Positions 12,208 to 14,361 are shown, numbered from the stretch's first letter. The stretch: DNA of 24,000 nt from an uncultured Tangfeifania sp. (GCA_964528535.1 CAZGSQ010000019.1:10605-34604); one strand, 5' to 3'. Notes: generated by a model not told the origin, from the letters alone. Translations and numbers: made by a program.

Positions 12208-14361
12208 TCAATATGCAACTACCATTTGAACAATTTCTTTTAGACCTTCATCAACCTTAAAAGCAATTGTTGGCTCATCAAATGATTGATTCAATATATA
12301 ATCAAAAGTTTCTGAATACTTAAATTCAATCCCTTCAAATAGCTTACACCAGAGATTCCTTGCCAAAAGGTAGCGAAAAGTAAGTATTCTGATTTGCCTT
12401 GGCGTTAGTTCCGTTTTAATGAGAGAAATCTTTTGTTTGAGTAGATCAATTTCAAACGGACGTAAACTATAGATATTAAGAACAATCTCCTGCTTCACTA
12501 TTGTTTTCTTTCGTTCTGATGGTATTCCTTGTACTTCTTGTTCTAAAATATCAACTTTGTCCTTCTGATCTGAATCAGGGATGATTGTAATTTGGCCAAT
12601 AAATTTTCCCGATCTTTGCTTTGAACTATTAATTTGGTGGGCTAGTTTTTCAATAAAGAAACATCTTTGTTCTTGCGATATCGGAGGTAACTTAATTGCT
12701 GAGATTAATAGCTTATCAAGGTATTCAACACTTAGAGTCTCTAACAATATATTATTCCTTCTTTCTCTGTATTTATGTTCAATTGCCTCCCTTAAAATGG
12801 AATCATCAACTGCAATTAATACCACTATATGCTTATTTATCGCTGGATCATCAAGCATAACTCTTAATGCATCAACTATTTCAATCATTCGATCTTCCGA
12901 ACAACGATCCAAATCATCGATAAATAATAACAATCTCTTTTTATTAATTTCCTCCCACTTGAACCTTTTCCAATCCCATTTCGTCCTTTTCAATCTTTCG
13001 GTCCAAGACCGTATAACAAAAACCAATTCTTTTTGTATTTCAGCTTGCACACCTAAAACATTCCTAAAAGATGGTACACTTGTAATCGAATCAAATATCT
13101 TTAATGCTGGCTTACTAGAAAACCTTATAAATGAAACAACTTTATACACCAGAATCGTAAAGGCCCAAATTCCCCCAGCCCATTTGATCAGTTGAAGTAA
13201 AGAATTAACCTTTGCCTCAAAAGGAATTATGAAAAATAAAATGAAGCCAATTATAATTAAGATAAGGGGTATAATCCAACTTTCCCAATGGCCTTTTTTT
13301 TCAATTGATAAACATAAAATTCTAAAAGGTTTGTTCCACCACTTTACATTTAAATATCCGCCAATAATAGTTTCAAAAAGGTAAGCCCAAATGGAAGGTG
13401 TACTTTGATACCTCCAAGCTTGGAATTGAACATATAAAAAATCTGAATCTGGGTTTGGAGTTTCCTTCTCAAAATCAATTTTTAAATGTTTACACACTTC
13501 TTTAATGAAGTATGTCTTCCCTCGACCCCACTTGCCAAATAGGCCAACCATTTGCCCACTTTCATCCTCAATATTTTTCAAATGATTCGCAAAAACTTCA
13601 GCAATTTTTTCAACGTTAAAGACTGGGCTAATAGAATTATCAATTATACTACCAGTAAATTCATTTGGGAAATAAGGTTCATTATCAGGAGTCACATCCG
13701 GAATAATTCCGGAGTTACCAGAAGTACCAGAAGTACCAGATGGCCCCGGTGGTCCTTGAGGACCTTGTAGACCGGAGGTAACTGAAGTGCCTGAAGTGCC
13801 TGAGGTCCCGGATGACCCCGGTGGCCCAGGAGGACCTTGTGGCCCTTGTGGCCCTTGTGGACCTGAAGTGCCTGTAAGAGTACCTTCAACTATACTTTTA
13901 GAGGTTTTGGCTCCTGAAATCGAATCGTTCCCAGATGATTTTTCACTAATGCTTGCATTTCCTACTTTGCTTTCTATTACATTATTATTATTTGAAAGTA
14001 TTTTTTCAAGCCTAATTCCAAAGGATTCAGTTACATCTTGTCCTAATTCATTAAAAATTTCTTTATGATTTCCTCCATTGTTCAATCTCTTATCGACCTC
14101 TTTGATATAATCAGATTTTCTAGCAGTTGGATTACTCGTTATGAAATTTGAAAAATCATAAATACGATAAGAATTAGGATCAATTATTTCAACTTTTTTA
14201 TTACCAATCGGTTGCTTACCAAATTTTTTTTGTTCAAGGTAATCAAAGTACTGAAAAACTTCTTCCTTTGTTATAACACTAACAAATACATCATTAATTA
14301 GATCGTTAAAATGCTCTTCTCGCTCAACAAACAAATTAAAGTATTCGGTTTTTTGTTCCAT
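12208..14361 (-). CDS. KAP-family P-loop NTPase with transmembrane helices inserted in the NTPase domain and an N-terminal collagen-like tract
   Basis: 717 aa. Walker A is GLFGKWGRGKT (nt 13513-13545). Two hydrophobic helices, WIIPLILIIIGFILFFIIPF and WAGGIWAFTILVYKVVSFI (nt ~13126-13281), lie between Walker A and Walker B (LLLFIDDLDRC, nt ~12904-12933). That arrangement is the defining KAP architecture. Residues 160-218 are Gly-X-Y repeats. The start codon is 11 nt after the hsdS stop. Confidence 0.8.
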   Translation of the reverse strand: MEQKTEYFNLFVEREEHFNDLINDVFVSVITKEEVFQYFDYLEQKKFGKQPIGNKKVEIIDPNSYRIYDFSNFITSNPTARKSDYIKEVDKRLNNGGNHKEIFNELGQDVTESFGIRLEKILSNNNNVIESKVGNASISEKSSGNDSISGAKTSKSIVEGTLTGTSGPQGPQGPQGPPGPPGSSGTSGTSGTSVTSGLQGPQGPPGPSGTSGTSGNSGIIPDVTPDNEPYFPNEFTGSIIDNSISPVFNVEKIAEVFANHLKNIEDESGQMVGLFGKWGRGKTYFIKEVCKHLKIDFEKETPNPDSDFLYVQFQAWRYQSTPSIWAYLFETIIGGYLNVKWWNKPFRILCLSIEKKGHWESWIIPLILIIIGFILFFIIPFEAKVNSLLQLIKWAGGIWAFTILVYKVVSFIRFSSKPALKIFDSITSVPSFRNVLGVQAEIQKELVFVIRSWTERLKRTKWDWKRFKWEEINKKRLLLFIDDLDRCSEDRMIEIVDALRVMLDDPAINKHIVVLIAVDDSILREAIEHKYRERRNNILLETLSVEYLDKLLISAIKLPPISQEQRCFFIEKLAHQINSSKQRSGKFIGQITIIPDSDQKDKVDILEQEVQGIPSERKKTIVKQEIVLNIYSLRPFEIDLLKQKISLIKTELTPRQIRILTFRYLLARNLWCKLFEGIEFKYSETFDYILNQSFDEPTIAFKVDEGLKEIVQMVVAY
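13708..13884 (-). repeat. Collagen-like Gly-X-Y coding repeat built from short 9-bp tandem units
   Basis: The protein reads G-PQ-G-PQ-G-PQ-G-PP-G-PP-G-SS-G-TS-G-TS-G-TS-V-TS-G-LQ-G-PQ-G-PP-G-PS-G-TS-G-TS-G-NS-G, with one Gly-to-Val interruption. At DNA level there are three 9-bp tandem blocks: ggcccttgt x2 plus the variant ggaccttgt (~13832-13858), ctgaagtgc x2 plus a variant (~13782-13808), and ccagaagta x2 plus a partial copy (13718-13740). Confidence 0.85.

Follow-up and report, generated by a model that had tools for sequence, protein, structure and literature searches.

The question raised by this locus is whether a collagen-like sequence can be a working part of a prokaryotic defence NTPase, or whether it is an addition to one. 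The gene concerned lies in a stretch of 24,000 nucleotides (nt) from an uncultured Tangfeifania sp. (GCA_964528535.1, CAZGSQ010000019.1:10605-34604; the whole stretch is called the window below, and positions are counted from its first letter), and it encodes a KAP-family P-loop NTPase whose N-terminal part carries a run of Gly-X-Y triplets. An initial annotation had proposed this protein as a novel defence effector, with the collagen-like tract as one of its designed elements. On balance we consider it probable that the protein is a membrane-anchored sensor NTPase for phage defence, embedded in a restriction-modification (R-M) operon, and that the tract is a lineage-specific insertion in one of its linkers. 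The R-M-linked KAP subfamily to which the protein belongs is a stronger finding than the tract itself. The parts of the gene and of its product, from the N-terminus onwards, are the following.

12208..14361, minus strand: complete KAP-family NTPase gene, 717 amino acids (aa) plus stop (list of open reading frames, ORFs; Pfam KAP_NTPase)
13987..14361, minus strand: conserved N-terminal alpha/beta domain, residues 1-125, the subfamily signature (AlphaFold2; local hidden Markov model, HMM)
13684..13986, minus strand: hypervariable linker 1, predicted disordered, residues 126-226 (AlphaFold2, alignment)
13702..13872, minus strand: Gly-X-Y tract, residues 164-220, 57 aa (sequence; Pfam Collagen)
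13513..13536, minus strand: Walker A motif GKWGRGKT, residues 276-283 (sequence; family alignment)
13219..13290, minus strand: predicted transmembrane (TM) helix 1, residues 358-381 (Kyte-Doolittle and AlphaFold2)
13123..13182, minus strand: predicted TM or re-entrant helix 2, hydrophobic core 394-413 (Kyte-Doolittle and AlphaFold2)
12901..12933, minus strand: Walker B motif LLLFIDDLDRC, residues 477-487 (sequence; family alignment)
12466..12612, minus strand: second variable linker, predicted disordered, residues 584-632 (AlphaFold2, alignment)
12211..12465, minus strand: conserved C-terminal helical domain, residues 633-717 (LTPRQIRI..YRYLLARNLW ... MVVAY; alignments, AlphaFold2)

The ORF is intact and begins with ATG, and its product matched the Pfam KAP_NTPase profile (PF07693) over residues 251-636 (E = 4.5e-26; 92.2 bits against a cut-off of 20), in agreement with the family assigned in the initial annotation. 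In an alignment of 70 family members the Walker A residues G276, W278, G279, R280, G281 and K282 and the Walker B residues D483, D485 and R486 were invariant, and every family-invariant residue is present in this ORF. KAP NTPases are said, after Aravind et al. 2004, to carry two (or four) TM helices in the stretch that separates Walker A from Walker B, and two hydrophobic segments are found at this place in the present protein. The initial annotation had called both of them strongly hydrophobic; the layout was confirmed and the first segment is strong (mean Kyte-Doolittle value over 19 residues of 3.13 at residues 361-381), whereas the second is borderline (1.57 at residues 394-413, the family median of the second peak being 1.63). 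Exactly two hydropathy peaks between the Walker motifs were detected in 49 of 65 relatives, and AlphaFold2 models the region as an antiparallel helical hairpin (helices 358-378 and 387-416), with a loop of around 12 residues between the helices and basic residues flanking the outer ends of both.

The hydropathy scan showed a hydrophilic N-terminus and no hydrophobic segment before residue 356. As both halves of one P-loop domain have to face the side that contains NTP, and no N-terminal signal or TM segment precedes them, the first 355 residues, with the tract among them, are predicted to be cytoplasmic, and the topological reasoning that had placed them there is sound.

The full-length AlphaFold2 model has a mean predicted local distance difference test score (pLDDT) of 77, and its confident parts are the N-terminal alpha/beta domain (1-125), the KAP core, the membrane hairpin and the C-terminal helical domain (633-717). 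The latter, of around 85 aa, consists of four helices with pLDDT >88 and follows the second linker, which has pLDDT <50 at residues 584-627 and around 10% identity to its relatives. The nearest solved folds for the KAP core were RdrA of RADAR (E = 2e-5), archaeal ORC2/Cdc6 and BrxC of BREX, which are oligomeric, ring-forming defence or initiator switch ATPases, the RdrA rings being heptameric; a sequence search of solved structures with the KAP protein matched collagen chains alone. Judged by its sequence, the protein is a genuine membrane-anchored KAP-type P-loop NTPase, for which NTP hydrolysis and a membrane location are predicted.

The N-terminal domain was also modelled alone, with a pLDDT of 87 and a predicted template-modelling score of 0.81, and produced no significant structural match in PDB or BFVD, so that the domain of around 130 aa that the initial annotation had failed to recognise stands as such, with its limits at residues 1-125. 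A local HMM built on it matched around 45 proteins out of those fetched, all of them with KAP motifs, and the domain is present in them singly or as a tandem pair; it therefore defines a KAP subfamily. It is tandemly duplicated in P0007, P0010, P0011, P0015, P0021 and P0035 (columns 1-260 of alignment A1), and an extra extension of 100-200 aa precedes it in P0040, P0165 and P0175. This modular behaviour, with duplications and extensions, would fit a domain that acts as a sensor or adaptor. In KAP relatives further removed, the N-terminal module is a different one, for example LRR, HU-CCDC81 or ResIII, and this swapping is a pattern typical of interchangeable sensor or adaptor domains; the N-terminal domain is presumed to be a sensor or partner-binding module. 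The KAP relatives belong mostly to Bacteroidota (Prolixibacteraceae, Draconibacterium, Ancylomarina, Kordia, Mucilaginibacter), and the layout of the subfamily is an N-terminal domain of 125 aa, a disordered tether, a KAP core with the hairpin, a second linker and a C-terminal helical domain.

The genomic position of the gene carries the main argument for its function. The gene order in the window is hsdR, an IS200-type tnpA, hsdM, hsdS, the KAP gene, an ORF of 118 aa, an MqsA/Panacea antitoxin gene, McrB and McrC, with the following coordinates for the neighbours of the KAP gene.

18079..21312, minus strand: hsdR, type I restriction subunit (Pfam EcoEI_R_C, ResIII; PADLOC REase_I, E = 3e-216)
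15775..17232, minus strand: hsdM, type I methyltransferase (Pfam N6_Mtase, E = 5e-63; PADLOC MTase_I, E = 4e-189)
14373..15770, minus strand: hsdS, type I specificity subunit (Pfam, PADLOC, NCBIfam)
10771..12119, minus strand: 118-aa ORF (putative toxin) and fused MqsA-like/Panacea antitoxin (Pfam, synteny)
6885..10711, minus strand: McrB-like AAA_5 GTPase and McrC, type IV restriction, at the end of the island (Pfam AAA_5, McrBC; synteny)

hsdS and the KAP gene share one strand, with the KAP start codon 11 nt past the hsdS stop. The initial annotation had placed the gene between a type I R-M operon and a toxin-antitoxin (TA) pair; the defence-type neighbourhood stood, and the gene is more aptly seen as the last one of the R-M operon. 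The same gene order was found in loci L002/L003 and L004/L005, the whole island being syntenic with L002 and L004. A comparable position was detected in other loci, with the KAP gene 11-21 nt after hsdS or an MmeI-like methylase gene in the window and in L002-L006, L008 and L010, and within 300 nt, or after small ORFs, in L007, L009, L011 and L163. The preceding gene is hsdS in L010 and L011; a type I R-M system and five small ORFs precede the KAP gene in L007; and in L006, L008, L009 and L163 the KAP gene follows an MmeI-like methylase/target recognition domain gene accompanied by SNF2 helicases. Altogether, in 10 of 11 contexts the KAP gene shares its strand with the methylase or specificity gene of an R-M system, either type I or MmeI-like, and comes directly 3' of that gene. 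Because the subfamily gene is almost always the last of an R-M operon, a role in phage defence is probable.

Comparison with L002, the locus of the syntenic orthologue, showed identities of 83% for hsdR, 94% for hsdM, 49% for hsdS and 54% for KAP, followed by 70% for the 118-aa ORF, 65% for the antitoxin, 55% for McrB and 75% for McrC. The sharp fall at the hsdM/hsdS boundary suggests either a recombination boundary or a faster divergence of the specificity-bearing genes.

This position also recalls PrrC and RloC, anticodon nucleases of type I R-M operons, whose NTPase genes lie within or adjoining hsd genes, pointing to a back-up layer coupled to restriction. A guardian of this type would stay quiet as long as HsdM/S, or the MmeI-like enzyme, is undamaged, and would fire once restriction is disabled by anti-restriction proteins of a phage. 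We regard such a guardian as unlikely, although it fares best among the alternatives. It accounts for the conserved place of the gene right after the specificity-bearing gene in two unrelated types of R-M system and for a KAP divergence that keeps step with the variable specificity parts, hsdS and McrB (54%, against 94% for hsdM), and it has a precedent in PrrC within the EcoprrI operon and in the synergy reported between Tmn and PrrC (bioRxiv 10.1101/2022.08.21.504612). However, the present protein is membrane-anchored, its subfamily occurs also beside MmeI-like enzymes, and neither HEPN nor another nuclease family was detected in it with Pfam, NCBIfam or PADLOC. The same N-terminal domain is found with type I and with MmeI-like partners, which makes a specific protein-protein fit to HsdS unlikely, and the adjacency may also come from operon hitch-hiking within defence islands.

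With respect to the tract, its triplets read GTS GPQ GPQ GPQ GPP GPP GSS GTS GTS GTS, VTS, GLQ GPQ GPP GPS GTS GTS GNS GII, that is, 10 triplets, VTS and 8 further triplets, which gives the 18 Gly-X-Y units with a single Gly-to-Val break that the initial annotation had estimated. Residues 164-218 matched Pfam Collagen (PF01391) above its gathering score (35.6 bits against a cut-off of 27.2; E = 7.8e-9). As Gly makes up merely 4.2% of the protein outside the tract, a chance origin is excluded (probability <1e-20 by direct calculation). Slippage of a microsatellite as the sole origin was likewise rejected, as 15 of the 19 nonamers are distinct and Tandem Repeats Finder detected short 9-bp arrays only, of 2-3 copies. 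Gly occupies 18 of the 19 first positions with all four of its codons in use, and this persistence among varied nonamers and codons hints that the pattern is under constraint or that the tract was captured from a collagen-like gene that already existed. Pro accounts for 11 of the 38 X/Y residues, and the Gly and Pro codons explain why the GC content is higher in the tract than in the rest of the gene (0.43 against 0.32).

The tract is unique within its family. It lies in linker 1, which has pLDDT <50 and 6-10% identity to relatives, and which is 101 aa long here against 40-90 aa in relatives (mode 44), the difference from the mode being the tract itself (101 = 44 + 57). DNA homology to L002 breaks exactly across this linker, and in an alignment of 23 full-length relatives the stretch that holds the tract, between the N-terminal domain and the KAP core, is rich in gaps and cannot be aligned, the tract itself being absent from all 23. 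In a search of 5.8 billion protein clusters around 77 KAP relatives were found, with PF01391 in the query (P0001) alone; the 90%-identity cluster of the query has 1 member, so that no close allele of the tract-bearing protein was found there, and the nearest relative has 54% identity; the syntenic orthologue, also at 54%, is without the tract. When residues 140-345 were compared by phmmer with 1.84 billion representatives, two disjoint classes of matches were obtained, one of KAP relatives matching the right half only and the other of collagen proteins matching the tract only, and a motif scan of the fetched proteins gave 134 with a KAP-type Walker A, of which the query alone has a collagen run. 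Among 151 collagen loci fetched from contigs of metagenomes and genomes, in scans dominated by the QGPQGPPG pattern, none has a Gly-X-Y run together with a KAP motif, and the sole other locus with both in one ORF, L001, is the same sample's own assembly. Viral contigs gave a single match, to a phage collagen-like gene, and no KAP relative.

The question of whether the tract is conserved, variable or unique among homologues, which the initial annotation had put, is thereby answered as unique, and its proposal of a designed element of a novel effector does not agree with a feature present in one protein out of around 134 KAP relatives, within a linker of such low identity. Its absence from these relatives, the syntenic orthologue included, indicates that the KAP family works without it. 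By sequence comparison the tract is best read as a one-off, lineage-specific, in-frame insertion of 57 residues in a length-tolerant tether, and not as a family feature; it lengthens, and perhaps stiffens, the tether of the N-terminal domain. In the open-access literature no paper was found on a KAP-collagen fusion or on an hsdS-linked KAP gene.

The tract could also fold as a cytoplasmic collagen triple helix that trimerises the N-terminal sensor domains, or spaces them rigidly, on the membrane NTPase. The score above the Pfam threshold, the Gly pattern kept among varied nonamers and codons, the content of Pro and the clean, in-frame insertion are in favour of it, and so is a resemblance to the collagen segments of phage tail fibres, which fold in the cytoplasm (PHROG matches with E from 1e-10 to 1e-11, generic for Gly-X-Y sequence). 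With Scl1/Scl2, BclA, Lcl and phage tail fibres the tract shares a continuous Gly-X-Y pattern rich in GPQ, GPP and GT[ST]; unlike Scl and BclA, it has just 18 triplets, is interrupted, is predicted to be cytoplasmic and is embedded in an NTPase, and no signal peptide, LPXTG anchor or known trimerisation domain was detected in the protein. The NCBIfam scores for Scl proteins are far under their cut-offs (SclB 37 against 325, SclA 31 against 400). We hold the triple helix to be improbable, as the tract is a singleton in its family, has merely 10 and 8 triplets separated by the Gly-to-Val break, and has no recognised trimerisation domain beside it. About half of its triplets are GTS, GSS or GNS, a type that in the host-guest peptides of Persikov et al. 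is said to have a low triple-helix propensity, and bacteria lack hydroxyproline. The AlphaFold2 monomer, with pLDDT 32-39 in the tract, says nothing on a triple helix. As to the stoichiometry, neither the heptamers of RdrA nor the decamers of Tmn (PMC13001434) are commensurate with trimers.

A combination of both ideas, an R-M-coupled membrane sensor-effector that fires when restriction is bypassed or inhibited and in which a true triple helix bundles three sensor heads into a rigid stalk, appears more doubtful still. If this is true, a collagen-type element would for the first time be seen to oligomerise an immune NTPase of prokaryotes, and it may have been captured from a gene for phage tail fibres.

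All evidence for the tract comes from one sample (SRR12676971, two contigs), with an identical protein in a public collection on a contig of 55,450 bp, and an assembly, chimera or frameshift artefact of the metagenome-assembled genome would fit with a single sample, a cluster of size 1 and a GC-richer tract. Such an artefact is very improbable, as the frame is continuous through both junctions with conserved domains on either side, the insertion lies exactly in the indel-tolerant linker of the family, the raised GC follows from the Gly and Pro codons, and the second (Logan) assembly of the same run gives the same sequence in frame, an agreement of two different assemblies within the same sample and not an independent biological confirmation. 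A membrane NTPase with a housekeeping or signalling task and no link to defence is equally improbable, for although the protein has no full-length match to a validated defence model (PADLOC matches being partial) and the distant member P0053 stands among housekeeping genes, 10 of the 11 contexts are R-M operons or defence islands with McrBC, TA, AbiEii, SIR2 or PLD genes, the distribution is patchy, with no close allele in the 5.8 billion clusters, and the GC content is low relative to the flanks.

Several observations weigh against the reading that we prefer, that of a phage-defence sensor NTPase with a neutral linker insertion. The second hydrophobic helix is merely borderline by hydropathy, and no recognisable effector domain was detected in the protein by Pfam, NCBIfam and PADLOC searches. 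The maintenance of Gly at 18 of 19 positions with four codons hints at selection, which a neutral insertion leaves unexplained. The 11 contexts were picked for long contigs, and the R-M link no longer holds in P0053 (locus L164), the most distant of the members examined, which has 32% identity and a different N-terminal domain and lies among housekeeping genes. A further point concerns the condition of the R-M genes themselves. hsdS is interrupted by one in-frame TAG at 15510-15512 (…YGATIG*TAKLG…) and is otherwise colinear with the 471-aa HsdS of L002, of which tblastn covers residues 1-471; it may be a pseudogene, a sequencing error or a 306-aa half-S fragment made from an internal start codon. 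Two more features lie between hsdR and hsdM.

17492-17947, minus strand: IS200/IS605-type Y1 transposase gene
17235-17363, minus strand: remnant of a PDDEXK_13/REase-ARP gene, its last 43 codons, 70% identity (the gene stands at this position in L002 and L004)

The insertion sequence (IS) element removed most of the PDDEXK gene. Given the premature TAG in hsdS and this disruption, the locus may be decaying and the R-M part of it may be defective, in which case the R-M link would possibly be non-functional here.

The protein was also compared with known membrane-associated defence systems. The initial annotation had equated it with Tmn, the defence system of Gao et al. 2020, and a 2023 preprint had indeed counted Tmn among the KAP NTPases, its P-loop domain holding two TM helices (10.1101/2022.08.21.504612); a mechanistic study of 2026 instead places it in the YobI family, separate from KAP, and describes a decameric complex in the membrane, with C-terminal solenoid arms to which phage RIIB binds in the cytosol, the binding of the trigger driving ATP turnover, Mg2+ export and plasmolysis (PMC13001434). 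Both proteins have two TM helices inside a P-loop domain and a cytoplasmic NTPase, a shared feature that alone is not diagnostic. The sensor of Tmn is a long alpha-solenoid at its C-terminus; in the present protein a small alpha/beta domain stands at the N-terminus, and the C-terminal helical domain is short. Tmn is encoded by a stand-alone gene, often plasmid-borne, and no tblastn match of the KAP protein was found among 72,556 plasmids. No Tmn was found among the PADLOC matches and no YobI among the Pfam matches, with E up to 10, the presence of the respective model in each library being unverified. The identity with Tmn was rejected on the basis of the other family, the absence of a profile match and the absence of a C-terminal solenoid arm. 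The cytosolic appendages by which Tmn senses phage proteins offer a likely working model for the present protein, with sensing, NTP turnover and a membrane effect.

A closer precedent is found in KAP NTPases with a fused region that confer phage resistance, which establishes experimentally an antiphage role for this kind of protein; for one of them, EF_KAP, protection needs Walker B and the fused region and is not abortive-infection-like (PMC13552941). Proteins of the EF_KAP type share with the present one the KAP profile, the Walker motifs, a membrane helix in the NTPase domain, a fused uncharacterised region and a defence-type setting. The fused region is, in contrast, a C-terminal one of 322 aa in EF_KAP, and one of around 125 aa at the N-terminus and on a disordered tether in the present protein, and EF_KAP has one N-terminal and one internal TM helix, unlike the hairpin described here. 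The present subfamily further differs in being operonic with R-M genes and in having been found in Bacteroidota-like genomes only in the retrieved data, and the collagen insertion is unique to this one protein.

PifA of the F plasmid, responsible for T7 exclusion, has in common with the present protein the KAP fold, and PADLOC gave a partial PifA match in the Walker A region (E = 8e-9). PifA acts in phage exclusion at the membrane and is reported without TM helices (PMC13001434). Its identity with the present protein was rejected, as the match is limited to residues 251-332, no similarity was found by tblastn in plasmids and the genomic context is another one. QatA was also rejected, with an NCBIfam score of 57 bits against a cut-off of 600, a partial match (473-579) and no QatBCD-like neighbours. 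The PADLOC search that the initial annotation had suggested gave, besides QatA and PifA, further partial matches to PDC-S20 and PDC-S49 only, and no Tmn.

As for the rest of the island, the antitoxin has 328 aa, with an MqsA-like zinc-ribbon/helix-turn-helix part fused to SocA/Panacea (Pfam SocA_Panacea, E = 1e-21; MqsA_antitoxin, E = 2e-8), and the 118-aa ORF has no family match except phrog_34059 (E = 1e-4). The pair is also found 3' of the KAP gene in L002 and L004, and could be part of one functional island with it. A hairpin that resembles a terminator and has a T-run is located at 12089-12106 (minus strand), some 100 nt downstream of the KAP stop codon and across the start of the 118-aa ORF; the counts of promoters (sigma-70) and terminators do not exceed the shuffle expectation, terminator-like sites being fewer than in shuffles, so that the significance of this hairpin is doubtful, and the sigma-70 model is unsuited to Bacteroidota. 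The GC content is 0.32-0.37 over positions 6500-15000 against 0.45-0.53 in the flanks and hsdM, and the McrBC-TA-KAP part looks compositionally foreign. The island is located between genes of type IX secretion system type (1479-6572) and mnmE (21643-23115), and the members of the hsdM cluster indicate that the host is probably a Prolixibacteraceae metagenome-assembled genome. Regarding other loci, in L006 (1-18010, from a Draconibacterium genome), L008, L009 and L163 the MmeI-like methylase before the KAP gene is accompanied by SNF2 or DEAD helicases, and in L006 also by a PLD-family gene, in a DISARM- or BREX-like layout, and these four loci are dense defence islands with vWA and PP2C (TerY-P-like), SIR2, AbiEii or Schlafen-like genes nearby.

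Within the reading of a defence NTPase embedded in an R-M operon, the KAP protein would be an accessory, second-line antiphage module. Its tethered N-terminal domain would sense either a product of the phage or a change in the state of the R-M complex, upon which the NTPase core would switch or oligomerise, and the membrane hairpin would pass this change on as a membrane-level effect, for example ion export or leakage, a scheme modelled on Tmn and PifA. We thus infer the defence role, the sensor role of the N-terminal domain and the membrane effector mechanism from the analysis of the family and its contexts.

KAP antiphage systems are already known as a kind, and what is new here is a Bacteroidota KAP subfamily with a previously undescribed N-terminal domain and a conserved last place in R-M operons, which differs from those systems in that domain, in the architecture of its tether and in its position in the operon. 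The mechanisms of membrane-anchored defence NTPases are only beginning to be worked out, with studies of Tmn and of the KAP fusions both in 2026. In this setting the collagen-like insertion is a natural experiment, according to which the sensor tether would tolerate large changes in length and composition, and, if the tract does form a triple helix, it would represent an unusual intracellular use of the collagen fold. The subfamily itself provides a testable hypothesis, that of an R-M-linked second-line defence or a guard against anti-restriction, in a phylum whose defence biology is little explored.

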